IMG/VR virus record: IMGVR_UViG_3300021375_000006
Direction: 5' to 3' (one strand)
DNA: 64,000 nt
From: a virus
Taxonomy: Duplodnaviria > Caudoviricetes
Shown: positions 1-20,914 of the stretch, piece by piece
How positions within the stretch are numbered: the first letter of the stretch is position 1
Layout of the letters: each line of letters starts with the position of its first letter
The notes under the pieces: generated by a model
What the model was told of the DNA's origin: nothing
The model's database searches: none
The model's input: the letters and a program-made list of their open reading frames with translations, nothing else
Program-made: the position numbers and the translations under genes

Positions 1-425
1 TTTGCCATGTACAGGTTAACAATATCTTTACTTGTCATACCGATAGAAATTGCAAAGTTCATATAGAAATGCAAACCATCAATCCATTCATAGAATAATT
101 CTAATTTATCAGCTTCAGAAAGATCTTCGATCTTCATTTCGGCTGCTTGAGCATTAGTACTCTTCCAGTATTTCCATGCACCTGAGGCAATACCGTCGTT
201 GATACCTCCAAGGGCATCAAACATTTCATTTAATTCGTCTGACATTGCGTGTTTATTTACACACCAAAAGTCTGCGATTTGTTTTAAGTTCCAACCTGTA
301 AAGTCGAAACCTAAACGCTTTTGTAGTTCCACTTGCTTATTATAGATTAAGCCAAGTGTGTCTTCCGCTTCTGAATGAAAGTCTTGGACTTCCAAATCTG
401 CACATTTGTTATCTGCGTTCGCCAT
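1..425 (-). CDS. All-alpha NTP pyrophosphohydrolase (dimeric dUTPase / T4 gp56 dCTPase-like), truncated by the window edge
   Basis: Not in the ORF track; translated by hand from the ATG at 425: MANADNKCADLEVQDF...DELNEMFDALGG...WKYWK...ELFYEWIDGLHFYMNFAISIGMTSKDIVNLYMAK. The E-x-x-E...WKxWK...E-x-x-D pattern fits this family. A promoter lies at 442-470. Confidence 0.75.
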   Translation of the reverse strand, partial: MANADNKCADLEVQDFHSEAEDTLGLIYNKQVELQKRLGFDFTGWNLKQIADFWCVNKHAMSDELNEMFDALGGINDGIASGAWKYWKSTNAQAAEMKIEDLSEADKLELFYEWIDGLHFYMNFAISIGMTSKDIVNLYMA

Positions 426-441
426 ATATTTTTATTTAATT

Positions 442-470
442 GTTATAGTTAGATTTACTTATCTGTTTCA
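442..470 (-). promoter_or_regulatory. Class-2 promoter TGAAAC-N17-TATAAC
   Basis: Lies 17 nt upstream of the NTP pyrophosphatase ATG. Confidence 0.65.
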
Positions 471-1351
471 AGTATTTCGCCCCAAGCTCTTTCGGACTTT
501 GTTAACGATTTTGTGTTAATATCTTTTGGTTTTGGATCTCCACCTACATTCCAGAACCAGGCACCAGGAGATCCATGTTTAGTCATGAACTCCCAAGCTT
601 TAGCATCGTAGTTCATAGCCGATGGGAATGGTGGATTATACTGTGGGTCTACATCTTGTGTAAATGCTTTTGGATGAGACCATATAGTTGCATTACCTCT
701 TTCACCCTTCTTGATATTTCTTGCTACTGCAACTGCGTTAAACTTAGCGTCAGGCCAAGCTATTTGTAAAGAGCGTTGTAGAACTCCCGTAGAGATCGCT
801 GACCATACTTCTTCTGGATAACCATATTTCTCTGCAAGATCGTGCGCGACCTTCACAGCGGCTGCTGTAACCAATTCATGGCGAAGTCCTAAAGGAATAA
901 AAAATGCTCCGTTATCTTCTGCCCATTTCTTAGCATGAGCATTTAAGACTGGCATTGCTGCGATTCTCTTGAATTTCATTTCAGCTCCCATCTCAACACA
1001 AATTGCCTGATGGTCTGAAATCTCTTTTTGACTTGGACTAAATAGTACAAGTTTCTTATTATACTTATTTGCTAGGTATGCAAGTGAGATACCTGCAAAT
1101 CCATATCTAGGTTGAACATAGACTAGAGTATCTTGTTTACAAGTACTAACTAGAATATCTCCAAATCTACACTTAGAACCAAAACCCATTAGGTCTTCTC
1201 TGACTACTTTAAATCCATCATGGTCTACTAATTGTGGAGCCTCAAATGGATCTTGCCAATCACCTGCTAAATCCAACCATGCCTGTTTATTCGGCATCAT
1301 CAGATTTAGATCCTGGTTCATAAGTATATCTGTGTGTTTATTATGCGCCAT
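455..1351 (-). CDS. PLP-dependent enzyme, fold type II (TrpB/cysteine synthase/ACC deaminase-like)
   Basis: GSKCRFG (candidate Schiff-base Lys), SAISTGVL phosphate loop, YDAKAW and C-terminal WNVGG. Overlaps the stop of the upstream gene. Confidence 0.75.
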   Translation of the reverse strand: MAHNKHTDILMNQDLNLMMPNKQAWLDLAGDWQDPFEAPQLVDHDGFKVVREDLMGFGSKCRFGDILVSTCKQDTLVYVQPRYGFAGISLAYLANKYNKKLVLFSPSQKEISDHQAICVEMGAEMKFKRIAAMPVLNAHAKKWAEDNGAFFIPLGLRHELVTAAAVKVAHDLAEKYGYPEEVWSAISTGVLQRSLQIAWPDAKFNAVAVARNIKKGERGNATIWSHPKAFTQDVDPQYNPPFPSAMNYDAKAWEFMTKHGSPGAWFWNVGGDPKPKDINTKSLTKSERAWGEILETDK

Positions 1352-2570
1352 AAAATTCTGCTACTTTTTTCTTATATGCTTCTACTGTTAAACCAGCTTC
1401 TGCAATTATTTTATCATCACTAGGATGGTGTTTCATTCCGTTAAATGTTTCTACTAGACCTAAGTCTAACATTGCCTTTTGTCTACCGAATGGATGGTCT
1501 TTAATTACTGAAGAATTCCATACGCCGTCCATATCAATATGTGCATAGTCAGCTCCTGGTCTCATGTAATTCTCAATCCATCTAATAAAGTCACATGCTA
1601 CGTCCTCTGCATTATACGGCAGAGAACCTGTCTGTTCATATATTTTTGTCATCACTGCATCTAGGAAAGGTTCTGATTTTTTACCTTTACCTTCTACGGG
1701 ATCTGCAAGGTAACCAATACATTCTATTGCATTCGTACCATAGTAGAACATTGATTCCCTGTTAACATACTGTGGAAACCAATCTGCTATATCTGCTAAA
1801 ACTGCTGCATATTGGAATTTATATTGTCTTAATCCGTTTGCAACATTCCAATCAAACATCCATTGACCCAATTCTCTTAGGTCTTTCTTACCACCCTCTT
1901 CTAAGAACTTAGCCATGTCTCTAGCTAAGCGTGGTGCGAATTCACATAGGAAATAGTCGCCGCCTCTCTTGTAAGTAAACTGAGGGCCTTCGAACCCCGT
2001 CATCCCAACAAAGACTTCCTCGTTTTGCTGTGGAATCGGGGGTTTTGGGAAAGCTGGGAATTGATACCCAACAGAAGTGTAGAATGACTTGGTTGCTGCT
2101 TTCACTTGCTCACACATTTGTTCTATAGAATCAGATTGCCACAAGTCGAATAGTAGCGTGTTGTGATAGCCACTTGGTTTAGTAGCATAGTTAATTGCAG
2201 ATCCACATACTCTGTGCAGGATGAATATGTAGAGCCATTCTGGTAGGCCGAAGACTTCTTGTTTACCGGTCCAATTGGTAGCGACATCTTTGCGCTGTTC
2301 CGTAACTAAACCAGCCTGCATTCTTGACCAATACGGATGTGCTTCAGTCCAACCGTAAAAAACATCATTCACGATTTGACTAAACCCAGCATACTTCCTT
2401 TCAACCACATCATACAGCTCGATATGTTCCATCAGCGGATCGTCCATCCCGGACTCGGCATGTGGAATGTGGCCTAGGTTACTCTTTTTCTGCTGGTCTA
2501 AGGCTAACTCATAATACCTGATAAACTCATCATAGTATTTAGTAGTCTTAATTTTACACGTCGTACTCAT
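1341..2570 (-). CDS. aGPT-PPlase / amino acid:DNA transferase-like helical protein (thymine hypermodification family)
   Basis: Motifs LYDVVERKYAG, FQYAAVLADIADWFP, YYGTNAIECI and NAEDVACDFIRW resemble the HhH-glycosylase-like aGPT-PPlase clades. It is adjacent to a PLP enzyme, as in known hypermodification clusters. Confidence 0.6.
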   Translation of the reverse strand: MSTTCKIKTTKYYDEFIRYYELALDQQKKSNLGHIPHAESGMDDPLMEHIELYDVVERKYAGFSQIVNDVFYGWTEAHPYWSRMQAGLVTEQRKDVATNWTGKQEVFGLPEWLYIFILHRVCGSAINYATKPSGYHNTLLFDLWQSDSIEQMCEQVKAATKSFYTSVGYQFPAFPKPPIPQQNEEVFVGMTGFEGPQFTYKRGGDYFLCEFAPRLARDMAKFLEEGGKKDLRELGQWMFDWNVANGLRQYKFQYAAVLADIADWFPQYVNRESMFYYGTNAIECIGYLADPVEGKGKKSEPFLDAVMTKIYEQTGSLPYNAEDVACDFIRWIENYMRPGADYAHIDMDGVWNSSVIKDHPFGRQKAMLDLGLVETFNGMKHHPSDDKIIAEAGLTVEAYKKKVAEFYGA

Positions 2571-2736
2571 TCACTTCTAGTATTTCCCAATTTAAGGCTC
2601 TCCGGTTTCTTTGATATTGTTCCATCGACCATTCAATATTGTCTGTTGTCAACTCAATAGTATATGGAGCATCTCCGCGACCGTAAGTTTTTTCTATTGC
2701 AAGATTAGGTGTTATTTTAATTTTATATGTTTTCAT
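2554..2736 (-). CDS. Hypothetical protein, 60 aa
   Basis: ORF track; overlaps both neighbours in the operon. Confidence 0.6.
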   Translation of the reverse strand: MKTYKIKITPNLAIEKTYGRGDAPYTIELTTDNIEWSMEQYQRNRRALNWEILEVNEYDV

Positions 2737-2909
2737 ATTTGGTTGCCAAGTATCTGTCTCGTATTTAATTCAGAAGCTATTGCAGCTGCTGCCGATAACA
2801 GATGATTAAGGTTATGCTTTAATAAACTATCAGAGATATTCTCATCTCCATAAGTCTGTAAACTATTATGTGCAATTTCTACACTTTGTTTAATACCGTT
2901 TATATCCAT
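2733..2909 (-). CDS. Hypothetical protein, 58 aa (MDINGIKQSVEIAHNSLQ...RQILGNQI)
   Basis: Found by hand below the track cutoff. Its TGA overlaps the next ATG (ATGA) and it fills the gap. Confidence 0.6.
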   Translation of the reverse strand: MDINGIKQSVEIAHNSLQTYGDENISDSLLKHNLNHLLSAAAAIASELNTRQILGNQI

Positions 2910-2919
2910 ATTATTATTT

Positions 2920-3084
2920 TTAATTATTCCATCTTCTTAAGATATTCCAAACAATTAATATATTACAAATTACAGCCTGTAATACAATAAGAGTCCTAAA
3001 TATCGCAACAGCATCTGCTTGTTTATCGTCCTCTCCGGCTTTTTCACCAAGCGCTCTTGCCCAGTACTTCCAAAGCTTTTTCAT
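2920..3084 (-). CDS. Small membrane protein, 54 aa (MKKLWKYWARALGEKAGEDDKQADAVAIFRTLIVLQAVICNILIVWNILRRWNN)
   Basis: Found by hand. Has one hydrophobic helix, and the WxxALGEKAG...AD.vA.fRT pattern resembles a small protein common in aquatic T4-like phages. Confidence 0.65.
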   Translation of the reverse strand: MKKLWKYWARALGEKAGEDDKQADAVAIFRTLIVLQAVICNILIVWNILRRWNN

Positions 3085-3085
3085 T

Positions 3086-4162
3086 TTAGAAAAGTGCTTG
3101 AGTTACTGGCTTTAATTTCTGATTGGGTTCATCTTTTACTAAATCCCAACGATAATACTCACGAGCGATATGAACTGACTTAGGCTTTTCCATTACGTCA
3201 AATGTTAACTCTCCAAAAGAGTTTAAAAAGACTGCTGGGTGTTGCCATGTTAACCATCCATTTCTCTCGCACATTGCTTCTACTAACTTGTTAAATTCTT
3301 TTACAAGTTCAGTTCTCTCTGCCCAAGTACCAGCAAAAGGAGTACCTTTATAGTAGCCGGTTTTTGGTAGAGGTCTAGACTCATTCTCAATTGGAAGAGC
3401 CTGAATAACTTCAATATTTTCGATTTCTAAATCGATTAATTGTTTTTCATAATTAGATACCATATCCTTTAAAGATTTCGATGGATTATCTTGTCTCATT
3501 AGGTGGTGTCTTATATCTATATTCCCTAGATATATGCGTAGTGTTGTAATATTTTCTGGTACATAAGATCTAATACCTCTTCTTAAAGTTCCAAAAAGAG
3601 TTAGGCCATCATGTCTATCAGTCATGTAGCCGGGTGTATATTGGCTAAAACTATGTGAGTCTCCAAAACAGAGTTTATCTGTATTTTGTATTCTATCTAC
3701 TTTAGGAATACTAGCACATATTGCCTTAGCTTCTTCTATTTGTGTCTCAAGTGTTTTAAAAAGATCTGAACCTGTCTTTAAACGTTTCTCAATTAGAGTA
3801 CCTACACAAGGCATATCATGGTGGAGCGAATACATTCGTATACCGGGAGCGAACATTCTAATGATTTGATGGTATAAGTCATCGTTCGCCCCACCGAAGA
3901 TATTAAAATTGCCTTTAAATTCCATTCCGTGTTCAATAAGAATCACGTCGAAATCGTCTGCCTTCCAAGCTGAGTTATCTGTAATTATAGAAACATTGGA
4001 GTAACCAGCATGTTTTAATTGATTTGCTAGATGGAATGCCCATCCAGATTTATGTGAAGTTAGTTTGCTACTAAGTTTTCCAACTAGTGCAGAAATACCG
4101 ACACGTATATTAGTGTCTTTCTCTAGATCTGTAAAATAGACTAGGTTATTATTTGTCTCCAT
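3086..4162 (-). CDS. Two-domain protein: T4 beta-glucosyltransferase-like N-terminal domain fused to an SGNH/GDSL-hydrolase-like domain
   Basis: N-half DFDVILIEH...FNIFGG...MYSLHHDMP recalls T4 BGT (DYDRLIVVN...INFFGG...IYYLFTDIRLP). C-half has FGDSHS, LGNIDIR and KPKSVH, matching SGNH blocks I, III and V. Confidence 0.5.
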   Translation of the reverse strand: METNNNLVYFTDLEKDTNIRVGISALVGKLSSKLTSHKSGWAFHLANQLKHAGYSNVSIITDNSAWKADDFDVILIEHGMEFKGNFNIFGGANDDLYHQIIRMFAPGIRMYSLHHDMPCVGTLIEKRLKTGSDLFKTLETQIEEAKAICASIPKVDRIQNTDKLCFGDSHSFSQYTPGYMTDRHDGLTLFGTLRRGIRSYVPENITTLRIYLGNIDIRHHLMRQDNPSKSLKDMVSNYEKQLIDLEIENIEVIQALPIENESRPLPKTGYYKGTPFAGTWAERTELVKEFNKLVEAMCERNGWLTWQHPAVFLNSFGELTFDVMEKPKSVHIAREYYRWDLVKDEPNQKLKPVTQALF

Positions 4163-4481
4163 ATCCAGCGTCTGCGTCAGTTAAATTAATTGGCTTTTCA
4201 GTTTCACCATAGCCATACTTCTTAATATAATTGTCAAGACCGCCGATGTATGCGACGGCATCTAGAAGATTATCTTCTTTATAGTTGTAAGAATGTCTGC
4301 TTAATTTAAGTGCGACAAGTGCTGCATACATATCGGAACCTGACCATTCTTTACCGGTCATTCCTGAACAGATCATCGCGGCACGTCTCATGCCTTCTTC
4401 GAAAGGACCGTACATACGTTCTTTCTCTTCGGATCTGTTGTTAATAATTTCGTCTGCTGTTTTTAGAATGTTCTTGCTCAT
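4149..4481 (-). CDS. DUF6378-like / dNTP diphosphohydrolase-like helical protein
   Basis: ILKTADEIINNR...RMYGPFEE...LVALKLSR...DNLLDAVAYI pattern; promoter at 4506-4534. Confidence 0.6.
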   Translation of the reverse strand: MSKNILKTADEIINNRSEEKERMYGPFEEGMRRAAMICSGMTGKEWSGSDMYAALVALKLSRHSYNYKEDNLLDAVAYIGGLDNYIKKYGYGETEKPINLTDADAGYGDK

Positions 4482-4505
4482 AAAATAACTAATTAAATCT
4501 TAATT

Positions 4506-4534
4506 ATTATAGAGAAGAATGCTAGTTTGTTTCA
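4506..4534 (-). promoter_or_regulatory. Class-2 promoter TGAAAC-N17-TATAAT
   Basis: Upstream of the 4481 start; shares an identical 18-mer (GAAACAAACTAGCATTCT) with the copy at 5241-5269. Confidence 0.7.
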
Positions 4535-5218
4535 CTAATTAATATTAATATGGATAATAACTTCGTTGTAGTATTCTAGGAAACGTTCGTTCCATAGGTT
4601 CCATTTAATATCAGTACCATCTATTGCATAAATTTCATGGTTAGGGAAAAGTTTAAGATATAAATCTCTAAAATGTCTGAATTTTTCTTTAGACTCTGGT
4701 GTGTTTAGATGCCACTCTCCGACTACAAAATCTACATTATCTTTTATCCAAAATAAATTATCGACGTTAAAAATATCATATTCTCCTCCTTCGCAATCTG
4801 TTTTTAAGAAGTTAATTCTATCAATATTATTTTCTTTTATTAGGGTATCGAACCTAATAGATGGTATTTCTATATTTTGTCCATTAGCACCAAATACTTC
4901 ACTAATAGTAATAGTACCATCTACTGGTCCGATACCCTTTTCAATAATGGTTACATTATCTTGGTATACATTTTCCTTTAGAGTCTCATGTTCTAAATGA
5001 GATGGCTCTACGCAAATAACTTGTTTTGGATCTTTATTAAGAATACTATATGTAAATGGACCGATGCTTGCTCCTATATCTAAAACAACATCATCGGCTT
5101 TTACCTCTCTAACCTGTTCATAACATTTATCAATAAAGATCTCTTGAACTAAAGAGTTTTTATGCATTTTAGCTAGATTGGTAAATTCGTCCATCCAGCC
5201 CCACTTAAAAATAGCCAT
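4535..5218 (-). CDS. FkbM-family SAM-dependent methyltransferase
   Basis: VVLDIGASIG (SAM-binding motif I), CVEPS, and FLKTDCEGGEYDI (FkbM KxDxEGxE). Confidence 0.85.
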   Translation of the reverse strand: MAIFKWGWMDEFTNLAKMHKNSLVQEIFIDKCYEQVREVKADDVVLDIGASIGPFTYSILNKDPKQVICVEPSHLEHETLKENVYQDNVTIIEKGIGPVDGTITISEVFGANGQNIEIPSIRFDTLIKENNIDRINFLKTDCEGGEYDIFNVDNLFWIKDNVDFVVGEWHLNTPESKEKFRHFRDLYLKLFPNHEIYAIDGTDIKWNLWNERFLEYYNEVIIHININ

Positions 5219-5240
5219 ATAATTTTATTGGTATTATCTA

Positions 5241-5269
5241 GTTATACTCAAGAATGCTAGTTTGTTTCT
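5241..5269 (-). promoter_or_regulatory. Class-2 promoter AGAAAC-N17-TATAAC
   Basis: Upstream of the FkbM start at 5218; near-duplicate of 4506-4534. Confidence 0.7.
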
Positions 5270-5945
5270 AGAGTTCGTAGATAACCGGGACTCCATTTTC
5301 AATACAAAGATACTCATAAGGAAGTGTATCAATAAAATAGTGGTTATCATCATAGTCAATTTGATGCATGTGTGTATGTCCAGCGATTTGAATAATAGTA
5401 TCATCAAGAGGATTACGTCTTAGTGCTTCAGGTCTAATCCACATTGGACCTTCACCATCATAATTACCATACATTTCCATACCGCTATGATTAAATGATC
5501 TTTTATCATAAGACCAAAGATCATTAATCTGTTCTGAAATATTACCATCTTCTGGGAAATTGGCTTTATACCATTCTTTCGAAACACCAGCATGTGTAAA
5601 TAAAAACTTATCTACTTGATATGCAACTTGTAAGTGGTGCTTATTTTCTCTTAATAGTTCACTAATTTCAGCTGCGTGCCAAGCACTCCAACCACCATAC
5701 CTTCCTCCACAATCTGCCATGTAATGGAAATCATGGTTACCAATCAACATAGTTACTTTAATCTTTGACGCTTCTTTCCACTCAATGATTTCTTTAAAAT
5801 TAAAAATACACTCCGCATGGTTTCTAGTAAAAGAATCAAAGTAATCTCCGATGAATACAAATTCAGTCGCATCGCCATGTGCCTGCATAACTTGCTTCCA
5901 CTTGTTACAGCCATGAATATCTCCGATAACTACAATCTTACTCAT
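5268..5945 (-). CDS. Calcineurin-like metallophosphoesterase
   Basis: GDIHG, GDYFD, GNHD, THAG and GHTH metal-binding motifs. Confidence 0.9.
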   Translation of the reverse strand: MSKIVVIGDIHGCNKWKQVMQAHGDATEFVFIGDYFDSFTRNHAECIFNFKEIIEWKEASKIKVTMLIGNHDFHYMADCGGRYGGWSAWHAAEISELLRENKHHLQVAYQVDKFLFTHAGVSKEWYKANFPEDGNISEQINDLWSYDKRSFNHSGMEMYGNYDGEGPMWIRPEALRRNPLDDTIIQIAGHTHMHQIDYDDNHYFIDTLPYEYLCIENGVPVIYEL

Positions 5946-6100: not shown

Positions 6101-6156
6101 ACAGTACTAATATAATAAAAAAGCCTGACATAAAAAAATATCAGGCTAATTATTTT
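6101..6156 (-). promoter_or_regulatory. Class-1 (putative early) promoter element, copy 1
   Basis: On the minus strand: AAAATAATT...TTTTTTTATGTCA-N11-TATATTAGTACTGT, with the same spacing as the copies at 20505 and 53543. Confidence 0.75.
6116..6147 (-). terminator. Intrinsic terminator-like hairpin overlapping the early promoter
   Basis: AGCCTGA(6122-6128)...TCAGGCT(6141-6147) stem followed by a T6 run on the minus strand, just downstream of the 6173-7930 ORF. Confidence 0.65.
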
Positions 6157-11269: not shown

Positions 11270-13129
11270 TTATATATTCTTTAAAAAATCATCGAAGGTT
11301 AGGAATTCTGGTTGTGCAGATTCTGCAGCAACACCCATCGAGTCTTCTAATTTCATTTTAAGTTCTCCATACATACCATGTATATCCTTAGGAGTTAATT
11401 TCTTAAATAGTCTTTCGTCACCATCAAGCATTGCGTTTCTAACCTGAGTTGCTGAAATATTCTTGCCTGATCTTGGAATTTCAAATAAACCAAAATCGTC
11501 TCTTACACCTAGATCGTCTCTGTATTCTTGTTTATCTGCTTGATAACTATAGACTTTCATTCTATCAGTTCCAGTTCCCCATAATACTGGCTCGTATTGT
11601 GGTCTTAATTCATTAAACATTTTATCAATTGCTGCAGTAGGTAAAATCTTTACATCTTCAATTGGATAAGAAGATTTTAATTTTTGTAACATTGATAGTT
11701 GAGTCTCTTCGTCGTAAGGTCTCTTGAATGCATCTTCTGCTTTCTTAGTTTTAGACTTAATTAAAAAGATAACTACTGGATAACCGTTTTGTTTATAGAT
11801 AGTTTCAATAACTTTAGCGTGTCCTAATGTAAATGGTTGAAATCTACCAACAAACATATTTACAGGCTTCTTACCTTGATCTTTATACTTAACAGTTAAG
11901 CCTTCCATGATTGGACTAACTTGAGCTGAAATTTTTTGGTTTAATAAATATTGTTTAAAATCCATTACGTCTGATTCATTTGCTTTTGCCATTATTAAAC
12001 CCTCAATGGTTTCAACGATCTCGTTGATCTGCTCCATTAAATCTTTATTAATAAGGTCGGTTTCTTTAGTTCTCTTTTTTCTAAAAGAGCCTAATACAAT
12101 CTTAAATAACTCAGATAATATCTTATCTTGTACTAAAGTAAGTGTCTTTTCGTTTTGAATAAACTTATTATTTAATTCAAACATAGGAGATTCAGAAAAG
12201 TCTGCAGAGTCAAATTTAGCACCAATATATTTTGTAGCATTTTTTTCTACATAATTATTAAAAATAGATGACATTAATTCTAAATATCTTCTATCTACCT
12301 TTCCTTCTTTTAATTCTATTGATGAGAAATCAAATTGTACTAAATGTTCTACAACATCTAAAATTGTAATTTGATACATGTCTGATGGTTTTCTTGGATC
12401 CATCGGTTTTTTATTAAACTTCTCTAATTTAAAAGATTGTAATTCTGTTCCGTCATGAAAATTAATAATAAACCCTGCAACATCTTTTGAAAGATCGTTC
12501 ATTAAAGCAGATTGCTTCATATTCTCATTAAAAATACCGAATACTGTTCTTGTAAAGCTAGGCTTCTCAAAGTCTTCAAATGTCTGTTCAAATTCATTAA
12601 CCGACATTGCAAGAATTTGTTTTAATCTATCCTTTTGACCTGAGTCAAGTTGACCTTCAAATAATATAGGTGGTTTTGAAACATTTAGTTTATCCGCCCA
12701 CTTATTAAGTATTTTGGTATCTCTAATTACCTTTCTAACTTTATTAGGATTAGATGGTTGTAAAACTTGTATATGCGTTAAAATTAAATTTGATTCTGGT
12801 AAAACATCATACTCCACATCAATTGTTTTATTATCGCCAAGATATTCAAATCCAAACTTCCAGTCAAATGGCATATCTTCTATAACTTCTTTAGAAACAG
12901 ACTTAAAGTGGCGAATTGCGTTCTCATAGTATCTGACAATTGTACGATCTACTATATCCATTGGTTGCTTAGAACCAGATTTATAGTATGCAAAATCAGT
13001 ACCTTGTCTTCTTGCATGAAAAGATGAACCGTTGATTTTCTCAGTCACAATACATTTGTGGTTAAGTAGTTTATCAACGTCTGCTGTGTTAGCTCCTTCG
13101 AAATATGTTTTTAAATTGTCTAATGCCAT
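11270..13129 (-). CDS. RNA-ligase-like nucleotidyltransferase domain fused to an HIGH-family cytidyltransferase-like domain
   Basis: N-terminal VTEKINGSS (ligase motif I variant). C-terminal FVGRFQPFTLGH and RSGKNISATQVR (HIGH/KMSKS-like motifs). Confidence 0.7.
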   Translation of the reverse strand: MALDNLKTYFEGANTADVDKLLNHKCIVTEKINGSSFHARRQGTDFAYYKSGSKQPMDIVDRTIVRYYENAIRHFKSVSKEVIEDMPFDWKFGFEYLGDNKTIDVEYDVLPESNLILTHIQVLQPSNPNKVRKVIRDTKILNKWADKLNVSKPPILFEGQLDSGQKDRLKQILAMSVNEFEQTFEDFEKPSFTRTVFGIFNENMKQSALMNDLSKDVAGFIINFHDGTELQSFKLEKFNKKPMDPRKPSDMYQITILDVVEHLVQFDFSSIELKEGKVDRRYLELMSSIFNNYVEKNATKYIGAKFDSADFSESPMFELNNKFIQNEKTLTLVQDKILSELFKIVLGSFRKKRTKETDLINKDLMEQINEIVETIEGLIMAKANESDVMDFKQYLLNQKISAQVSPIMEGLTVKYKDQGKKPVNMFVGRFQPFTLGHAKVIETIYKQNGYPVVIFLIKSKTKKAEDAFKRPYDEETQLSMLQKLKSSYPIEDVKILPTAAIDKMFNELRPQYEPVLWGTGTDRMKVYSYQADKQEYRDDLGVRDDFGLFEIPRSGKNISATQVRNAMLDGDERLFKKLTPKDIHGMYGELKMKLEDSMGVAAESAQPEFLTFDDFLKNI

Positions 13130-13137: not shown

Positions 13138-14409
13138 TTATCTACCGTATTTAATAATACCCATTAACTGGTTAATAGCGGCAAAAGTTCCAGTTAACTT
13201 GAATGTTTTACCATTGTATTTAAAGACTAGGCCTTCTGTTGGAATGATTGACTCAATACCGCCGATACCTTCTAGTCTCTTTAATTCTTTTTCTACTTTC
13301 TCAATTTGTTTTAGATCTCCGTTCTTTTTAACTTTGTCAGCTTCAGTTCTGATTTGCTTATGTAATCTTGCTTTCTCAGCCTCTGGGTTAGCAGCAACAA
13401 AATTAGAAACGTTCTTTAAAACATCTGCACCTAATTCTAAAAATAGGTTCTCGAAAGGTAGAATGTTTTCTTTATACTTCTTATTTCTTTGACCATCAAA
13501 ATCTTTGACAGCTTTTGCTTGTTCTGGAGTAACTGCTTTCTTTAAGTCTCTCATATTTAGAGTCTTCTTGTCTAAGTATGCCCATCTTAATAGAAGTCCT
13601 TCTTTTAATACTGGGTCTAAATCCCCAAAGTTCTCTTCGATTTGGTTTCTCCACCAAGCCTCGTGATACATTTTAACCTCATCTTGATCTGATAGACTAT
13701 AAGTATCTCTTAGTTTATTTATCGCCTTTTCGTAATAGCCGACTCTCTCATCAAAGTTAATATCTTTTCCTAACTTTAAAATTTGAGGGGGAATTATTGT
13801 AAAGGTCTTTTGCACATCAGCTTTTAACTCTCTAAGTGCTTTTACAATCTCACCTGCAATATTCTCTTCACCTATGATATTACCAGCACCATCAGTAACT
13901 TTCATACCGTGGAATTGAATAACATCTCTGTCATAATAGATTACATTAGGATTCTTAGAGTAAATTAGCTCCATGTTGATAAATGAGTTACCATCTTGGA
14001 ATACAGATTGGTCCTTAAGCTTTGGGAGCGCATCTGCTAGATCTTTAGCAGCAAAGATAAATGTTTCTTCAACCAGCTTTGAAGCATGGCCAGTAAACAT
14101 CTTAATGATACCATTTAGGTCGAGTGGATTAGCTAGTTGCCCTTTATTTCTAGCGAACATAGCTTTACCATCTTTTACAGTTGCAAATACATTCTGACCA
14201 TCTGTCTTTTCAGTTGGTGCCTCTTCAAAATCAAGACCTCCTTGTAGTGCAGACTTTACAATTCTCTTGAAATCTGCAAACGTTAATGAGTGGTCATCGA
14301 ATGGGTGCATCATGTGACCAGCGGCACCACCTTCAAATACGAAATTGTCCAAGTTATTGACCTGGACTTTCTCGTTTAAGAATTCTTTAAATGTATATAG
14401 TTTCTTCAT
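13138..14409 (-). CDS. Ligase-fold (KxDG) nucleotidyltransferase-like protein with a capsid-targeting N-terminus
   Basis: MKKLYTFKEFLNE; EGGAAGHMMHPFDD; motif I TEKTDGQN; motif IV/V EGLVFKYNGKTFKLTG. Confidence 0.55.
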   Translation of the reverse strand: MKKLYTFKEFLNEKVQVNNLDNFVFEGGAAGHMMHPFDDHSLTFADFKRIVKSALQGGLDFEEAPTEKTDGQNVFATVKDGKAMFARNKGQLANPLDLNGIIKMFTGHASKLVEETFIFAAKDLADALPKLKDQSVFQDGNSFINMELIYSKNPNVIYYDRDVIQFHGMKVTDGAGNIIGEENIAGEIVKALRELKADVQKTFTIIPPQILKLGKDINFDERVGYYEKAINKLRDTYSLSDQDEVKMYHEAWWRNQIEENFGDLDPVLKEGLLLRWAYLDKKTLNMRDLKKAVTPEQAKAVKDFDGQRNKKYKENILPFENLFLELGADVLKNVSNFVAANPEAEKARLHKQIRTEADKVKKNGDLKQIEKVEKELKRLEGIGGIESIIPTEGLVFKYNGKTFKLTGTFAAINQLMGIIKYGR

Positions 14410-14428
14410 AAGAAGTTTTAGATTGTTT

Positions 14429-15967
14429 TTATCCTAATGATGATTGTAATGCACCAACTGCTGCACCATAGTCACCGTCGTGTTTAGTTAATAAACCGTC
14501 TACTACTTCTTGAGCTTTTTCTTCATCGAATTCGTCACCGAACGCTTGTTGTAAAACTGAGAATGCATACTCTTTAAAATCTTCGTCTGATTTTACTTCA
14601 GCTTCGTTAGTAGCTTCTTCAGCAACTTCTTCAGTTTCTTCTACTTCTTCAGTTTCTTCTACTTCTTCAGTCTCTTCAACCTCTTCAGTTTCTTCTACTT
14701 CTTCAGTCTCTTCAACCTCTTTAGTTTCTTCTACTTCTTCACCTTCTTCAGTAGCTTCACCTTCTTCGTGGTGTGCTTCTTCAGTAGATTCTGTTTCTTC
14801 TTCAACTTCTTCTCCCTCTTTAATTACAGGATAAGTCTTACCGTTAAACTCAAACTTTTCAGCATCTTCTTCGATTGCTTTAGCTCTTGCGGCTAAAAAA
14901 GCGTTACCTTCATTCATCACAGACTCGTTAGCCCAGATTAATTCAAATGCATCTACAATTTTTTGAGCAGTATCACCATGTCCGAATCCATCTAAGAATA
15001 ATGCCATACCTTCAACGATACCAATACCTGACCATCCAGCTGCATTAGCTAGACCAGAGTAATGTTCGTCTAATAGGTTAATGATTGATTTTTTACCAAC
15101 TGGAACTGACATTCCACCTAAATTATCGATGTCTACCATAATAGTAACAATCTTACCACCTAGTGCTTTACTTACTGGATCTCTATATCTGTGGAAGTTA
15201 GCGTCTGTTAGGGCTTCAGCTAATAAGTATCTACAAACACCTAATAAAAGTGGTCCGTCCATTAATGCAGTATGGTTCGTAAAGAATGATTCTAACCATT
15301 TAGCAACTTTCTTAGCGTCTCTTGCATTACCTTTACTTGGTTTAAATGCTTCATTAATAATTAGTGACTCAAATGCTGGAATTAATTCTTTATCTCCATA
15401 TACATCTGCCATATACCATTTGCCATCTCTTTCATCAAATAGGTAAACGAATTCTGCTCCTGCTCTATCGCTAGCATCAGAAATATAATCGTCGACTTTC
15501 TTAACATCACCTTTTAGTGTTGTTTTATCTCCGTAGAAATTAATCTTACTTGGATCTGCTTCCAAACCTGAGCCACCCCCTTTCTTAAGTAAAAACTTAA
15601 CTGTTCCGGAGTTCATGTAACCCTTCTTAATTGTAGGTAACATGTGGTCTGGATAACCATCGTAGTGCATATACACTGACTCTATTTTTCCTCTTTTAGA
15701 AATAATACCAACTTGTGATCTGGTACCTTCTTCAATGATAGCTAAAGACTCAGATACTTCAGAAGCACCTAGCTTAGCAAAAAATTTGTTTCTATCTTCT
15801 TCGTTTAAATCTTTTACAGATGTAACGCCGAACTCAGATAATAATGTTTCGAATTGGTAAGCTGACTCTGTACGAGCTACTTTTTGTTCTTCTTCTAATT
15901 TCATTTTTGCTGCTTTAGCGGAAGCATTAGCGAAATCTTCAAAAGACTGTAGTTTTAATGAACCCAT
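14429..15967 (-). CDS. Modular putative internal-head / scaffold-like protein with a Glu-rich repeat
   Basis: MGSLKLQSFEDF; a domain GTRSQVG...VYMHYDGYP of a type common in phages; linkers ESLIINE and ESVMNE; (EETEEV)n tract. Confidence 0.5.
   Translation of the reverse strand: MGSLKLQSFEDFANASAKAAKMKLEEEQKVARTESAYQFETLLSEFGVTSVKDLNEEDRNKFFAKLGASEVSESLAIIEEGTRSQVGIISKRGKIESVYMHYDGYPDHMLPTIKKGYMNSGTVKFLLKKGGGSGLEADPSKINFYGDKTTLKGDVKKVDDYISDASDRAGAEFVYLFDERDGKWYMADVYGDKELIPAFESLIINEAFKPSKGNARDAKKVAKWLESFFTNHTALMDGPLLLGVCRYLLAEALTDANFHRYRDPVSKALGGKIVTIMVDIDNLGGMSVPVGKKSIINLLDEHYSGLANAAGWSGIGIVEGMALFLDGFGHGDTAQKIVDAFELIWANESVMNEGNAFLAARAKAIEEDAEKFEFNGKTYPVIKEGEEVEEETESTEEAHHEEGEATEEGEEVEETKEVEETEEVEETEEVEETEEVEETEEVEETEEVAEEATNEAEVKSDEDFKEYAFSVLQQAFGDEFDEEKAQEVVDGLLTKHDGDYGAAVGALQSSLG
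14625..14740. repeat. 18-nt tandem repeat encoding EETEEV, about 6 units
   Basis: Unit acttcttcagtttcttct with synonymous variants, seen directly. Confidence 0.9.
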
Positions 15968-16003
15968 TTTTATTAAATTTATTTTTAATACTTTACTATT
16001 GTA

Positions 16004-17512
16004 TTATATATCACCGTCAAAAGTCACATTTTTTACCTCAAACGGGAACTTCTGTTCCTTATAGATCTTTTGACGCGCTTTGGCATGTCGAATGAGATAG
16101 TTATCCCAGTCTGGTGATGATAAGTCATCTACGAAATCAATGATATTTACCTCTGATTTTGTGTGGTGTTTTCTTAACCCTCTACCGATTGATTGTCTAA
16201 TTATGACTTCCGATTTAAACGATTCGGTAAAGAAGATATTATGTATTTTCTTAATCGAGATCCCTGTTGAGAACGTACCATAAGAGGCAACAATGACAAC
16301 CTGCGCGCCTGCTTCCATCTTCTTCTTGTATTCTTCACGGATGTCCTTGTCGGTATTACCATCCACATAATAGATGGGTTTGTCACTATCTTGGCGCAGT
16401 TTCTCATAAATTCTTTTGCCGTGTTCGATTCGGTGGAAAAGAACAAGGCTATTCCCACGTACTCTGGAAATAATGTTGCAAATGAAAGCCAAGCGCCCTG
16501 TTGAATTGATGACATAATTACTTTCAAATCTGAAAACGTCTTTACTTTCATATCTGTTTTGGGACATCTCATAAAAAGCATTCTTTGTGCTTTGAGGTGC
16601 ATAATCCATTTTTATTACTTTCACATTACAACCTGCAATGTGACCTTCATCTTGAAGGAATGCCGCATTGACCTCTGTAATTACAGGGCCTGTATGTGCC
16701 ATTAGGGTTAATCTATCTAACGTCTTTGCTTTTGGAATTGTCCCCGAGAGTCCAAATCGATAGTTTGCAGCAGTACATTTTTGTAGAATTGTTTTAATAG
16801 AGGTAGACTTAGCCTTGTGAGTCTCATCGATAATTACAGCGTCAAACTGTTCAAAATATTCTTTGTCTTTCTTAACAAGAGATTGATACGTACCAATTAC
16901 CATGTTTCTACCCGGTCTAATCTTTTGACCAGAATAGATCTGTTGTACCTTAATATTCGTTGCATTACGCCAGTTATAGTCCATAAAGTCCTCAGAGGCC
17001 TGTACAACTAACGAAACGTTTGGGACGATAAGTAATATCCTTCCAGCCTTGCCCTTCTCTAACATATACGCAATAGCCATATACGTTATCAAGGTTTTAC
17101 CAGCTGATGTGGCTAACTCACTTAGACATCTTCTAAATTTTAGAATATTATATGCCGCTTCAATTTGATAATCTCTTGGGTTTAATTCATGGCCATCAAA
17201 GTAGTCTTCTGCCCATTTTGTAAACTCTTCTTGTTTTACCGAAGGGTCGAATAGTGTGGTTACACCATTCATCTTTAACTCGAACTTATATTGTTTACAC
17301 AGATCCATCACCTCTTTCCAAAGTCCAGATGGAATCCACTTATCATCCTTAATATAGGAGATATAGCCATCCCATAGACCTTTCTTCACAAGAGGATGAA
17401 AGCGCCAGTTTTCAATTCTACGATTAAATGTGATATTGAGTTGTTCTATTTCTAGTTCACTCGCCTCATCAATACGCAGAAACTGCTTATTATCTGTTAA
17501 ACTCAGTTCCAT
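16004..17512 (-). CDS. uvsW: UvsW-like superfamily 2 DNA helicase
   Basis: LATSAGKT (Walker A), IIDETH (DExH), GLSGT, ASYGTFSTGISIK, QSIGRGLRK. Length 502 aa, adjacent to uvsY. Confidence 0.92.
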   Translation of the reverse strand: MELSLTDNKQFLRIDEASELEIEQLNITFNRRIENWRFHPLVKKGLWDGYISYIKDDKWIPSGLWKEVMDLCKQYKFELKMNGVTTLFDPSVKQEEFTKWAEDYFDGHELNPRDYQIEAAYNILKFRRCLSELATSAGKTLITYMAIAYMLEKGKAGRILLIVPNVSLVVQASEDFMDYNWRNATNIKVQQIYSGQKIRPGRNMVIGTYQSLVKKDKEYFEQFDAVIIDETHKAKSTSIKTILQKCTAANYRFGLSGTIPKAKTLDRLTLMAHTGPVITEVNAAFLQDEGHIAGCNVKVIKMDYAPQSTKNAFYEMSQNRYESKDVFRFESNYVINSTGRLAFICNIISRVRGNSLVLFHRIEHGKRIYEKLRQDSDKPIYYVDGNTDKDIREEYKKKMEAGAQVVIVASYGTFSTGISIKKIHNIFFTESFKSEVIIRQSIGRGLRKHHTKSEVNIIDFVDDLSSPDWDNYLIRHAKARQKIYKEQKFPFEVKNVTFDGDI

Positions 17513-17513
17513 T

Positions 17514-17936
17514 TTATAGTCCGTTTAGAGACAATCTATTTCTTATTGCAAAGCCCATATTATCTAGGGTCTTCACTGAATCTCTAAAAAATTCTAATTG
17601 GTTTTCAAGATGAGATAATACCATGTTCTCATCTGCCATATCATTTTCTAGAAATTTCTCTTTAACTTTTTCACCTAATTTATAGTCGTAATTATAGTAA
17701 CGAATATACGCTTCTCTATATCTAGTAGAGACCGAAATCTTTTGTTCTTTTATCTTTACGTTTAGGTATGCAATCTGATCTACACAGGTCTGTCTTGATG
17801 ATAGTACATTGGCTATCACCTCTTCCATTCCATCTACTTTCTTAAGTCCTTTCGCTAAGGCTCTAATAGTATCAGACCATTGTTGTCTTTGAGCACTCAA
17901 CTTTTGGTCTAGTGCCTGAATCTTTTCTTTACTCAT
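17514..17936 (-). CDS. uvsY: UvsY-like recombination mediator
   Basis: 140-aa helical protein next to uvsW, with C-terminal VKTLDNMGFAIRNRL. Confidence 0.65.
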   Translation of the reverse strand: MSKEKIQALDQKLSAQRQQWSDTIRALAKGLKKVDGMEEVIANVLSSRQTCVDQIAYLNVKIKEQKISVSTRYREAYIRYYNYDYKLGEKVKEKFLENDMADENMVLSHLENQLEFFRDSVKTLDNMGFAIRNRLSLNGL

Positions 17937-17946
17937 ATTAGTTATA

Positions 17947-18156
17947 TTAGAACAACGACTTTTTGTTTGGATTTGACCTTACAAACTTAGCGGCCTTTTG
18001 GCCCTTCTTAAGTTTAGGTTCTTCCACAACAAAGTCTTTGCTCTCTACGTTAAACTCTTCAACATCAAAACCCACGATGAGTTTGTTGCCCTTAAATCTA
18101 TCAGAGTCCTTAAAAAAGTCTTCTAAATTATCTTCCATTTCTTCTATACGTACCAT
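17947..18156 (-). CDS. Hypothetical protein, 69 aa
   Basis: ORF track; overlaps the primase stop. Confidence 0.55.
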   Translation of the reverse strand: MVRIEEMEDNLEDFFKDSDRFKGNKLIVGFDVEEFNVESKDFVVEEPKLKKGQKAAKFVRSNPNKKSLF

Positions 18157-19220
18157 AGATCTAATTCGCTTGATGTGAAATACTTTTCAATTTGTTTCCA
18201 TGCATCTGATTTTTGCTGGTAACATACTTTCACCAAGTCGTTTAAGTCCTTGATATTATATGTATCTAGCTTAAAATCAGTAAGAAATTTAGACCACATA
18301 AACACTGGCCTACCCTTCTTTAGCTTCTCTGCCATTTTCTTTTTACCTGTAGTATCGTTATCAAACATATAACGTACCGTTGCCATCTCATCAAATTCTT
18401 CTGTCGATCGACCGGCAGTGGCCAATGCTAATGAGTTGTGCATAAACTTTGCGTCAAGTGGTCCTTCAAATAGAGTTACTGGCTGTTGGAAATTAACCTG
18501 CATAATTCCAAATAATGTTGAAGCCTTTGCAAGTTTATTTAATTCCTCTTGTGGTAACTCAAGTGGTTTCTTCCACTCTTCATAGAGTTTAGGTAGGTCA
18601 TAAGTCAAATATCTTGACCCATAGCCTTTCATTCGTCTGGATTGTGCGCCGATAATTTTACCTTCTATTCCCTTGTTTAAAATCCAAAGGCGATTACCTT
18701 TAGGGGAAAATAAGAACTCATCAGCTTTATTGTGTAATAGCCTATCTTTAAGCTGGAACCATATCCAGTCTCCTGGTTCAATTTCTTTAGCGCCAAATAT
18801 CTGTTTAAACTCTGCTACAGTTAATGCCTTTTCTTGGACGCTTGCAAGTGAGGCGTTTTGTAATACTTGTTCTTGGCTAACCTGAGTCTTATTGGCTTTA
18901 ATATAGTCAATAATAGTAAATGAGTCACCTGAGTTAGGCATTCTCACTTGATGGTCTTTCAAGAACGAATGTAAATTTGTGTGGTGTGAACAGTTGTAGC
19001 AGTGATACTGTAAAGTGTCCCAATACATGTTACCTCTTTTCTTGGTATCATCTTCATGGGAGTCACCACAATAAGGACATGCCAGGGTTATACGCCCCGG
19101 CATGTCTTTAAGTAGTTGCTTGTTAGGAGTAGAATGTTGTTCTACGCAAACTTGTTTAAGTGCTTTCTTTATTCTACTCTTAAGCTCCTCTGTTATTTGT
19201 ATATTAGAGGTTGAGGTCAT
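18144..19220 (-). CDS. gp61: DNA primase (T4 gp61-like)
   Basis: Zn-binding CPYCGDS...HCYNC; TOPRIM motifs LFEGPLD and MFDND; KDLNDL. Confidence 0.85.
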   Translation of the reverse strand: MTSTSNIQITEELKSRIKKALKQVCVEQHSTPNKQLLKDMPGRITLACPYCGDSHEDDTKKRGNMYWDTLQYHCYNCSHHTNLHSFLKDHQVRMPNSGDSFTIIDYIKANKTQVSQEQVLQNASLASVQEKALTVAEFKQIFGAKEIEPGDWIWFQLKDRLLHNKADEFLFSPKGNRLWILNKGIEGKIIGAQSRRMKGYGSRYLTYDLPKLYEEWKKPLELPQEELNKLAKASTLFGIMQVNFQQPVTLFEGPLDAKFMHNSLALATAGRSTEEFDEMATVRYMFDNDTTGKKKMAEKLKKGRPVFMWSKFLTDFKLDTYNIKDLNDLVKVCYQQKSDAWKQIEKYFTSSELDLWYV

Positions 19221-20130
19221 TCAAGAAAGAATCTAAATCATCATCCGTATTGGCCTTCGCTGGTTCTTCAGTCTTAGTTGCTGTTGCTGTTGCAGCGGCT
19301 ACTGGAGTTGCTTCTCTCTGTGGCTCTGCCTTTGGAGCAGCTTTTGTAGCCGGAGTTGAAGTTACCTCTGCGATAGAATCACCTGGATTTAGATACATTC
19401 TTAGAACGTTATTTACGAATGCTCTTGTGTCTTCGTCCCACGCCTTATAGTCATAAGTTGCAAGTGAAGGAGCGTCTTCTAGTTCTGCTTTAATCGCCGT
19501 CATAGTTTCTTGAGATCTTTCCGCTGGAGCGTCTCCCATTACGATAGCTGATGTGTTAGCTGAGAATTTCGACTTATCATAGTTATTATATTCACCTTGT
19601 CTTGTGATAACTAACTCAAAGTTCTTACCTTCGAAAAGGTCGAATACTTGTGTTGGCTCACCGAAATCAGGCTTCAATTCTGAGTCAATTTTCTCTTTGA
19701 TCTTGTAACCAAACTTGAATACTTTGTAAGTACCCTCTAGTTCTGGGTTTTGTGGATCTTTAATAATTTTGATAAGAGAATAATACTGTTGGCGTCTCTT
19801 TAGTTTCTCAGAAGACTTTCTGTCTACTGCTGAATCTGACTTTCTCAATTTCCAGAATACATCTGCAATTGGACAGTGCTCGCCGACTGTTTGTGGAGAG
19901 TCCACTAGTTTTCCATCTCCATTAGAGTTAGTTAACCAGTGTACGTACTTTTGAATCAGAGATTTTCTTGGGTTCTCTGGGTTTGGAACAAAACGCACTA
20001 GTGCTTTGTAAGTTCCGTCTTTGCCGTCATCGGCGGTTGGTTTGTAAACTTCGTTTACGCTTGTTCTTTCAGGCTGGTGTGTTTCCACATCTTCCACGCC
20101 TAAATTAAAAATGTCAAATGAATCACTCAT
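19204..20130 (-). CDS. gp32: Single-stranded DNA-binding protein (T4 gp32-like)
   Basis: ALVRFVP, CPIAD, YYSLIKIIKDP.NPELEG..KVFKFG.KI, FDLFEG.NF, NYDKSKF; acidic tail DDLDSFLNDL. Confidence 0.92.
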   Translation of the reverse strand: MSDSFDIFNLGVEDVETHQPERTSVNEVYKPTADDGKDGTYKALVRFVPNPENPRKSLIQKYVHWLTNSNGDGKLVDSPQTVGEHCPIADVFWKLRKSDSAVDRKSSEKLKRRQQYYSLIKIIKDPQNPELEGTYKVFKFGYKIKEKIDSELKPDFGEPTQVFDLFEGKNFELVITRQGEYNNYDKSKFSANTSAIVMGDAPAERSQETMTAIKAELEDAPSLATYDYKAWDEDTRAFVNNVLRMYLNPGDSIAEVTSTPATKAAPKAEPQREATPVAAATATATKTEEPAKANTDDDLDSFLNDLNL

Positions 20131-20189
20131 AACTTTTAAAATTGTTTAATTGTTTAATACTTGAAATTACTTTAATGTCCTTTCGTTAC

Positions 20190-20219
20190 CTTATAGTTGT
20201 ACAATATACAATAGTTTCA
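20190..20219 (-). promoter_or_regulatory. Class-2 promoter TGAAAC-N18-TATAAG upstream of gp32
   Basis: Direct motif match 60 nt upstream of the ATG at 20130. Confidence 0.65.
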
Positions 20220-20411
20220 ATCTAGTGTCAAAATAGCTGGACGGCGCCCAGACCTTGGGTCTGCAGGCAATTCCTTCCAGGTCCCGTCCTCTTGCTTAAT
20301 CAGCCCTGATTTGTGTAGCAACTCCTCACGTTCTTGCGAAGTGATTGCGTTGGCTTCCACCATTTGTTTGAGAATCTCATTGAGACGGAAGTAGTCCGCT
20401 GTTATCAACAT
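20217..20411 (-). CDS. Hypothetical protein, 64 aa
   Basis: ORF track; preceded by overlapping class-2 (20440-20468) and class-3 (20442-20449) motifs. Confidence 0.6.
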   Translation of the reverse strand: MLITADYFRLNEILKQMVEANAITSQEREELLHKSGLIKQEDGTWKELPADPRSGRRPAILTLD

Positions 20412-20504
20412 GTCAATTGTACTTTTGTTTATTATACATATTATATATCTGAATTTAGATTTGTTTCTTCATAATATGTTAATAACTTTTTTGCAAAAAA
20501 ATGC

Positions 20505-20570: not shown

Positions 20571-20579
20571 ATATAAAAC

Positions 20580-20912: not shown

Positions 20913-20914
20913 TT

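Follow-up and report, generated by a model that had tools for sequence, protein, structure and literature searches.

A candidate cytosine-hypermodification cassette with HhH-fold, SGNH and PLP-dependent enzymes in a large uncultured marine phage

Gene content and layout of the cassette

We analysed a stretch of 64,000 nucleotides from the uncultured Caudoviricetes virus IMGVR_UViG_3300021375_000006, hereafter referred to as the window, and focused on the minus-strand genes at positions 1-5945. These genes encode a 409-amino-acid (409-aa) protein with the helix-hairpin-helix (HhH) glycosylase fold, a 358-aa protein with an SGNH hydrolase/acyltransferase domain, a pyridoxal-phosphate (PLP)-dependent enzyme of the PALP type and a pyrophosphatase related to the T4 gp56 dCTPase (Table 1). 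A role of this cassette in DNA base hypermodification, as an earlier sequence-only reading of the window had proposed, is very probable, given the HhH fold with an amino-acid:DNA transferase (AADT) as its best match, the PLP partner and the pyrophosphatase acting on the deoxynucleoside triphosphate (dNTP) pool. We further put at roughly 55% the probability that the cassette carries out the post-replicative part of a pathway for cytosine hypermodification, in which an AADT-like exchange would take place on 5-hydroxymethylcytosine (5hmC).

All genes that had been named in this region were present, and the minus-strand operon was confirmed. Its neighbouring genes either overlap (by 11, 17, 4 and 14 nt) or are separated by 1-10 nt, and the larger gaps measure just 29, 53 and 49 nt, each with one copy of the motif GAAACA-N16-TATAAY. 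This motif occurs four times in the window, against 0.1 copies expected by chance, and always on the minus strand; three copies fall in the cassette region and the fourth at 20440-20467. Moreover, a 19-nt core (GAAACAAACTAGCATTCTT) is identical in the copies preceding the DUF6378 and FkbM genes. The description of a tightly overlapping operon with three promoters thus holds for the operon, on the evidence of the overlaps and the bounding hairpin, and for the three motif copies, which we infer to act as promoters.

Table 1. Genes and regulatory features of the cassette region
Feature	Position	Strand	Remarks
NTP pyrophosphatase (gp56-type dCTPase homologue) gene	3-425	-	N-terminal 141 aa; cut by the window edge, last 13 aa beyond base 1
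PALP-type PLP enzyme gene, 298 aa	455-1351	-	phrog_7093; Pfam PALP below cut-off
409-aa HhH-glycosylase-fold protein gene	1341-2570	-	AlphaFold2 (AF2) model and fold match; without Pfam or PHROG match
60-aa open reading frame (ORF) between the SGNH and HhH genes	2554-2736	-	Same position in 54/80 loci; without family match
Small ORFs, 58 and 54 aa	2733-2909 and 2920-3084	-	Closest relatives only: 1/80 IMG/VR loci and L005
358-aa Rossmann-like/SGNH protein gene	3086-4162	-	Model, fold matches, invariant residues
DUF6378 protein gene, 110 aa	4149-4481	-	Pfam DUF6378; overlaps the SGNH gene start
FkbM-family S-adenosylmethionine (SAM) methyltransferase gene	4535-5218	-	Methyltransf_21
Calcineurin-like metallophosphoesterase gene	5268-5945	-	Metallophos
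Promoter-like motif GAAACA-N16-TATAAC before the dCTPase gene	442-469	-	Motif scan
Promoter-like motif before the DUF6378 gene	4506-4533	-	Motif scan
Promoter-like motif before the FkbM gene	5241-5268	-	Motif scan
Terminator-like hairpin, 10-bp stem then T-run	6122-6147	-	Closes the upstream late gene and bounds the cassette upstream

Conservation of the cassette among uncultured phages

The source is a large, T4-distant, uncultured marine myophage. Near-identical DNA was sought among 50,697 phage records, with no match from cultured phages. Close relatives of the window proteins number in the hundreds and lie on contigs of 120-256 kb from marine metagenomes and IMG/VR. We compared the window proteins with 80 IMG/VR loci by tblastn and found a conserved gene order of DUF6378, 358-aa protein, (60-aa ORF), 409-aa protein, a variable insert of 0-3 kb, PALP enzyme and pyrophosphatase. 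Both the 358-aa and the 409-aa proteins were matched in every locus (80/80), followed by DUF6378 (71/80), the PALP enzyme (66/80) and the pyrophosphatase (51/80), with most of the misses at contig ends, and the recurrence of this order is far more than chance. The phosphoesterase was matched in 17 loci and FkbM in none of the 80.

In many relatives the variable insert between the HhH and PALP genes codes for a distant paralogue of the 409-aa family, 350-388 aa long (hhalign probability 91%, E 1e-6), with an E-D-K-T-C motif of its own. Other genes were also observed at this position, namely a LOG/"lysine decarboxylase"/SLOG-family gene (PF03641, 4.5e-31; L028:12348-13022, L077:12368-13045 and L046:3943-4665) and a NUMOD3 homing endonuclease (L069, L082 and L067).

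An HhH-fold protein resembling amino-acid:DNA transferases

The 409-aa protein had no Pfam or PHROG match even at E <= 10, no sequence match in the PDB and no tblastn match among the 50,697 phage records. The family is not rare: clustering yields 933 groups at 90% identity and 143 representatives at 50%, from marine phage contigs of 120-256 kb as well as from unrelated polA phages. An AF2 model built from 59 sequences reached a pLDDT of 93.6. Foldseek alone returned nothing below E 0.9 for this model against the PDB, and VIA-align ranked 8z2m first (Z 9.2, root-mean-square deviation 4.1 A over 211 residues, spanning model residues 14-341), both among the Foldseek candidates and in an unbiased scan of 48,161 solved chains. 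This structure is the 5-phosphomethyl-dU glycinyltransferase gp46/PUGT of phage PaMx11, the only solved AADT known to us. All 16 matches with Z >= 5 belong to the HhH superfamily (PUGT, QNG1, AGOG, Ogg, AlkA, Mag1 and EndoIII), with QNG1/DUF2419 second-best (Z 8.2).

Nine residues are invariant in the 409-aa family, including Glu322 and Cys326, which are kept in 59/59 sequences and form a Glu-x3-Cys motif whose spacing is that of E243/C247 in gp46 and whose place on a C-terminal helix is comparable. In PaMx11 gp46 the nucleophile C247 lies four residues past E243 (PMC11472151), and M6 gp51 and ViI gp247 depend on the corresponding Cys and Glu (PMC8989533). The likeness to HhH-glycosylase/aGPT-PPlase folds on which the sequence-only reading had staked its proposal was therefore found in the model, as an HhH fold with a solved AADT as best match. 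Its label "aGPT-PPlase-like" stands for the fold and fails at the profile level, where no aGPT-Pplase or ADDT match was obtained for the protein; Pfam ADDT (PF18724) was reached at E 1e-3 by just 1/59 of the relatives. These results suggest that the modelled protein is AADT-like by fold and motif while lying outside Pfam ADDT, and make it a candidate group transferase acting on a 5-hydroxymethyl-pyrimidine in DNA.

A two-domain SGNH protein and its fusions

The model of the 358-aa protein (pLDDT 89) consists of a Rossmann-like N-terminal domain (residues ~1-155) and an SGNH hydrolase/acyltransferase domain (~160-347), the latter matching sialate O-acetylesterase, PAF-AH and the peptidoglycan O-acetyltransferases PatB and OatA with Z 10-13. 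Invariant residues include G167-D-S169 (block I Ser), G213-N214 (block III Asn) and H331 (block V His) in the SGNH domain, and S36-H37, N87, G90-G91 and R127 in the Rossmann-like domain. The closest two-domain look-alike is NeuA, which combines a nucleotidyltransferase with an SGNH esterase. The gene had been described as a fusion of a T4 beta-glucosyltransferase (BGT)-like domain with an SGNH domain, of which the SGNH half is borne out by the fold matches. Likeness of the N-terminal domain to BGT found no support, though a remote one may exist: neither Pfam (E <= 10) nor a profile of 24 N-terminal domains run against the PDB (E <= 10) gave a match, BGT was not among the top matches listed by Foldseek of the PDB, BFVD and Swiss-Prot with the full-length model, and PF09198 (T4 beta-glucosyltransferase) was not found in the genomes of relatives. 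An ESM Atlas feature search with the N-terminal domain returned empty.

Seven representatives of the 409-aa family (50%-identity clusters) are fusions of 640-790 aa whose N-terminal half is 28-42% identical to the 358-aa protein, so that the two proteins probably act in one pathway. In known thymidine systems, comparable fusions join a DNA kinase to PLP and aGPT-Pplase domains (PMC8989533), and by analogy the SGNH protein would occupy the kinase's place. Complex prediction for the 358-aa and 409-aa proteins scored 0.00, which gives no verdict and is evidence neither way.

Among cultured phages, the 358-aa family was found only in 38 Aeromonas T4-like phages (including 31, 44RR2.8t, 25, Aes508 and phiAS4), Stenotrophomonas phage IME13 and three Tenacibaculum phages (including PTm1). 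The 795-aa ORF233c of phage 31 and its homologues are clearly related to the 358-aa protein over their N-terminal 340 aa, at 29-34% identity (E 1e-33 to 1e-50; Foldseek E 1e-28). In phage 31 this part is followed by a ~400-aa helical domain, which matches HMUDK_hel weakly (E 0.0036) and has 'CEIACC', with an E-x3-C, at its C-terminus. Phage 31 also carries td and a gp42-type gene with Asp, and no glucosyltransferase was found in it. Phages 44RR, 31 and 25 were reported to have genes 42 and 56 and no glucosyltransferase genes, with the fate of Hm-dCMP left open (Petrov et al. 2010, PMC2993671). Directly upstream of ORF233c, ORF234c encodes a Na+/solute symporter (SSF, 7e-53; L002:4468-5991), which may import the group attached to DNA.

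A predicted PLP-dependent partner

The PLP enzyme scored 26.4 bits against Pfam PALP (cut-off 35; E 5.5e-6) and matched phrog_7093 at 1e-41, from which we predict a divergent fold-type II (PALP) enzyme. Lys60, within GSKCR, aligns with the Schiff-base lysine of CysK in a weak alignment (E 0.2) and is shared by six sequences representing five lineages. In cultured phages, the sole homologues of the enzyme are domains within N6/N4 DNA methyltransferases of Erythrobacter phages R6L and ZS04 and Microcystis phage Mae-JY30, which fits a DNA-directed role; the R6L domain reaches 40.6 bits against Pfam PALP, and the protein that contains it (vB_EliS_R6L gp1, 807 aa; L003:6894-9314) joins an N6/N4 DNA methylase to a PALP domain 36% identical to the window enzyme. 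The PALP gene also lies next to cassette genes in three unrelated phage backbones (L096, L097 and L098). The earlier assignment as a PLP enzyme is probably right, with a conserved candidate lysine, phrog_7093 support and a conserved partnership with the 409-aa protein. For comparison, ViI gp226 was modelled on a tryptophan-synthase-beta-like template (PMC8989533).

Evidence for cytosine as the probable target base

The pyrophosphatase scored 21.9 bits against dUTPase_2 (cut-off 22.9) and matched phrog_173 at 1.5e-13, and the part in the window is 96% identical to the full 154-aa copy on L004, a 177-kb contig of 95% identity. A tblastn search with the L004 copy matched 1,439 phage records, mostly T4-like and annotated as dCTPase or dCTP pyrophosphatase (E 1e-16 to 1e-22; 31-40% identity over 86-100% of the query), with T4 gene 56 at E 5e-16. 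Homology therefore identifies the predicted NTP pyrophosphatase, as it had been called, as a dNTP-pool enzyme of the all-alpha dUTPase_2/MazG-like type homologous to the T4 gp56 dCTPase.

Thymidylate synthase (TS) and dUMP enzymes have Asn177 at the base-specifying position, where T4 gp42, the dCMP hydroxymethylase, has Asp179. A canonical ThyA occurs alongside a second TS homologue in two relatives, G002 (whose 409-aa protein is 87% identical) and G003, whose 256-kb genome is complete and has terminal repeats. For the second homologue the best solved match is T4 dCMP hydroxymethylase (1b49, E 3e-20). This second homologue has the catalytic Cys in DFVCT, places Asp at the N177/D179 position (MRSNDIFYGLTFD) and keeps D169. 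A change of D169 to Asn marks 5-hydroxy-dCMP synthases (PMC13326640), so its retention argues against such an enzyme. Similarly, the 409-aa, paralogue, PALP and SGNH genes of the L075 lineage have a gp42-type gene (MRSNDVVFGYRND) 1.5 kb upstream, and the polA phage L097 encodes a MazG-like pyrophosphatase, a dNMP-kinase-like gene and an Asp-type TS homologue (MRSSDIWLGWVYD), then a polymerase, the fusion protein and the PALP enzyme. On the P0289 contig, one operon carries genes for a dCMP deaminase, a dUTPase_2 protein, the fusion, a 293-aa and a 178-aa protein, and a TS-family protein.

No HMUDK_hel (5-hydroxymethyluracil DNA kinase) was found in the cassette or in five relatives including the complete 256-kb genome, and no ThyX, ADDT or T4 alpha- or beta-glucosyltransferase family member was found in the genomes of relatives. 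Given the gp56 homology, the Asp-type TS homologues beside ThyA, the lack of a kinase or ADDT match in these genomes and the Aeromonas hmC phages, the substrate base is probably 5hmC and not 5-hydroxymethyluracil (5hmU).

At 360 aa, the canonical ThyA of G002 (L087; G002:C1:132735-133769) carries two insertions of ~30 and ~35 aa that ordinary thymidylate synthases lack. The gp42-type gene of G002 lies near ClpP and ClpB-like AAA+ genes (L090:319-996, 2180-3619), with a 105-aa ORF separating it from ClpP and no further modification genes among those adjoining it.

A proposed pathway and its alternatives

The pathway that we favour would begin before replication, where a gp56-type dCTPase and a gp42-type dCMP hydroxymethylase encoded elsewhere would, by homology, lead to replacement of cytosine by 5hmC in DNA. 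The post-replicative half is pieced together from fold, motif, fusions and gene linkage. Here the 409-aa enzyme would flip out 5hmC, with Cys326 attacking C6 and Glu322 assisting, and would replace the activated 5-CH2-O group by a nucleophile, an amino acid being the likeliest, in the way AADT acts on 5-phosphomethyl-uracil. In place of a P-loop kinase, the 358-aa SGNH protein might activate the hydroxymethyl group as an ester, or otherwise prepare or trim it, which is the weakest step. The PALP enzyme could then tailor the DNA-bound amino acid, which would have a free alpha-amine, for example by decarboxylation to a cationic amine (cf. M6 gp52 and ViI gp226), and the expected benefit would be DNA resistant to host nucleases. 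Our confidence descends from 5hmC in DNA, through the presumed Cys326/Glu322 substitution and PALP tailoring, to the suggested ester leaving group made by the SGNH protein. A fully kinase-independent 5hmC route, with SGNH esterification, a Cys/Glu amino-acid swap by a new HhH branch and PLP-dependent trimming to a cationic side chain, is a tentative proposal to which we give rather less than even odds. On that proposal the module would be widespread in marine large phages, and its fused variant would explain how Aeromonas T4-like phages without glucosyltransferases decorate their hmC.

Several observations weigh against the favoured pathway. For the 409-aa protein, Z 9.2 is modest for a helical protein, and the likeness of E322/C326 to E243/C247 is one of spacing and helix position; hhalign of the family against a 25-sequence profile of PaMx11-type AADTs gave a probability of 2%, and hmmsearch --max between the 409-aa family and AADT found nothing. 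The SGNH protein has Lys328, instead of the usual Asp, three residues before His331, and the carboxylate-binding "asparagine loop" of CysK is not conserved in the PLP enzyme. The Aeromonas phages carry the SGNH protein without a PALP gene, and searches for a link between the C-terminal domain of ORF233c and the 409-aa family, its paralogue or AADT found none. In addition, no acyl or amino-acid donor can be named, and the hydroxymethylase was read only in relatives, the window genome being represented by an unchecked TS-homologue record (RSNDIFYGLTFD) 54 kb beyond the window.

The sequence-only reading had pointed to a thymidine pathway of the M6/ViI type, and a 5hmU pathway of the M6, ViI or PaMx11 kind, with hydroxymethylase and kinase outside the window, would account for an HhH enzyme whose best structural match acts on 5-phosphomethyl-dU, for a PLP partner as in M6 and ViI (PMC8989533) and for the dCMP deaminase on the P0289 contig. 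We nevertheless regard it as very unlikely, since the pyrophosphatase resembles the gp56 dCTPase, every readable TS homologue has Asp at the base-specifying position while a normal ThyA is kept, and relatives including the complete genome lack HMUDK_hel and ADDT matches. The suggestion that a hydroxymethylase and a 5hmU kinase might lie beyond base 1 was not borne out either: L004, which shows the sequence to the left, has the last 13 pyrophosphatase codons and then a family-B DNA polymerase split by nrdB and nrdA, with no hydroxymethylase or kinase there. Equally little credence is due to the view that the 409-aa protein is a true DNA glycosylase/lyase serving repair, host-DNA attack or anti-defence, with the SGNH and PALP proteins as unrelated auxiliary metabolic genes. 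Besides PUGT and QNG1 all of its fold matches are DNA glycosylases, and SGNH and PALP enzymes are common in metabolism; however, a single pathway is favoured by the SGNH/409-aa fusions and by the recurrence of PALP as a neighbour in unrelated phages, Glu and Cys are invariant rather than the Lys/Asp pair that follows the HhH-GPD motif, and co-occurrence with gp42/gp56-type genes fits modification.

Two further explanations are unlikely, if somewhat less so. One holds that the module acts on free nucleotides or nucleosides before replication, with a QNG1-like HhH protein and with PALP and SGNH enzymes that build a dCMP/dCTP analogue or salvage bases. The rank of QNG1/DUF2419 among the fold matches, the position of the cassette amid nucleotide-pool genes and beside the polymerase, and the insertion of a LOG/SLOG-family gene (a family of nucleotide N-glycosidases) in the cassettes of some relatives would all agree with it, whereas the Glu-x3-Cys motif and the top-ranked fold match both indicate a transferase that works on DNA, fusions link the PALP domain with DNA methyltransferases, and in Aeromonas phages the SGNH homologues are fused to the domain with the weak HMUDK_hel match. 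The other supposes that the SGNH protein, whose catalytic Ser and His are invariant, makes the final modification alone (e.g., O-acyl-5hmC), while the HhH and PALP proteins serve a separate or regulatory step. This would suit the Aeromonas T4-like phages, in which the SGNH family occurs while PALP and any recognisable 409-aa homologue are missing, yet even there the SGNH part remains fused to the ~400-aa helical domain with E-x3-C near its end, and the marine phages keep all three genes together.

Relation to known hypermodification systems

Known thymidine pathways combine 5-HMUDK, aGPT-Pplase2/AADT and a PLP decarboxylase (PMC5889632, PMC8989533, PMC11472151). With the systems of M6, ViI, PaMx11, SP10 and PhiW-14 the cassette shares the HhH fold, Glu-x3-Cys, a small PLP partner of predicted fold-type II and fusions of pathway enzymes, as well as the HhH paralogues that many relatives have in pairs, and a TS-homologue hydroxymethylase and dNTP pyrophosphatase upstream in the pathway. 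It differs from them in lacking profile homology to ADDT, aGPT-Pplase and HMUDK_hel, in the two-domain SGNH protein that would replace the P-loop kinase, and in the dCMP/dCTP (gp42/gp56) type of the linked hydroxymethylase and pyrophosphatase. The T-even hmC system, in turn, is matched by the gp56 homologue in the cassette, by the Asp-type gp42 and canonical ThyA in relatives and by a T4-like replication backbone (gp32, UvsW and family-B polymerase), but HhH, SGNH and PALP proteins stand here instead of glycosyltransferases, with no member of the alpha- or beta-glucosyltransferase families in the genomes searched.

Phage 31 ORF233c and its homologues have in common with the cassette the N-terminal SGNH part and an origin in hmC phages without glucosyltransferases, and differ in the other ~400-aa helical domain to which that part is fused, in the missing PALP gene and in the neighbouring symporter. 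On TET/C5-methyltransferase phage contigs an aGPT-Pplase-type enzyme, uncharacterised, was likewise proposed for 5hmC (PMC8256090); there 5hmC arises post-replicatively through a methyltransferase and TET and a kinase is kept, in contrast to the gp42/gp56 route without a kinase proposed here. Our literature search found no published description of this module, the nearest being the untested suggestion of a kinase and aG/PT-PPlase acting on 5hmC (PMC8256090).

If the favoured pathway is true, the cassette joins AADT-like chemistry to cytosine, with a different activating enzyme. To our knowledge, amino-acid-type DNA hypermodifications have been characterised only on thymine, where they begin with a DNA kinase, and all characterised decorations of pre-replicatively made hmC or hydroxycytosine (hoC) are sugars. 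The cassette also gives a candidate answer to the 2010 question of the fate of hmC in 44RR, 31 and 25, phages that are cultured and directly testable. Moreover, new DNA-acting SGNH, HhH and PLP enzymes would be of interest as 5hmC labelling tools.

Accessory genes and the surrounding genome

DUF6378 is a member of the operon: it scored 38.6 bits, above the Pfam cut-off (E 1.4e-9), and lies directly upstream of the SGNH gene in all 71 loci with a match. The statement that DUF6378-type proteins purge canonical dNTPs found no backing, as neither a PDB match nor functional literature was found. FkbM and the phosphoesterase are probably accessory, not core. The FkbM family assignment is sound (Methyltransf_21, 47.8 bits against a cut-off of 22.7), and the part in the chemistry that had been given to it finds no support, given its absence from the 80 loci. 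The gene occurs only in the near-identical L004 and L005 and has a best cultured homologue in Synechococcus phage DSL-LC02, and its cultured-phage homologues (one cyanophage) showed no link to DNA modification. Its restriction to L004 and L005, together with the duplicated promoter core, suggests a recent lineage-specific insertion with a duplicated promoter. The phosphoesterase scored 53.1 bits against Metallophos, above the Pfam cut-off, and its presence in just 17 of the 80 loci argues against a part in the chemistry.

To the left of base 1, at L004:14203-20700, the family-B polymerase is encoded as a 468-aa protein (exonuclease and N-terminal polymerase part) and a 402-aa protein (C-terminal part), with nrdB, nrdA and a 247-aa gene between them, an arrangement kept in L001, L004 and L005. 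Elsewhere in the window lie genes for gp32, UvsW and baseplate proteins, and an ORF of 2,844 aa (29013-37547). Amidoligase_2 has been noted on thymidine-hypermodification contigs (PMC8989533); one window ORF within 6173-63969 matches this Pfam family (E 2.3e-6), and none of the ORFs in 13138-22105 does so. A 619-aa protein encoded at 11270-13129 carries a cytidylyltransferase-like domain.

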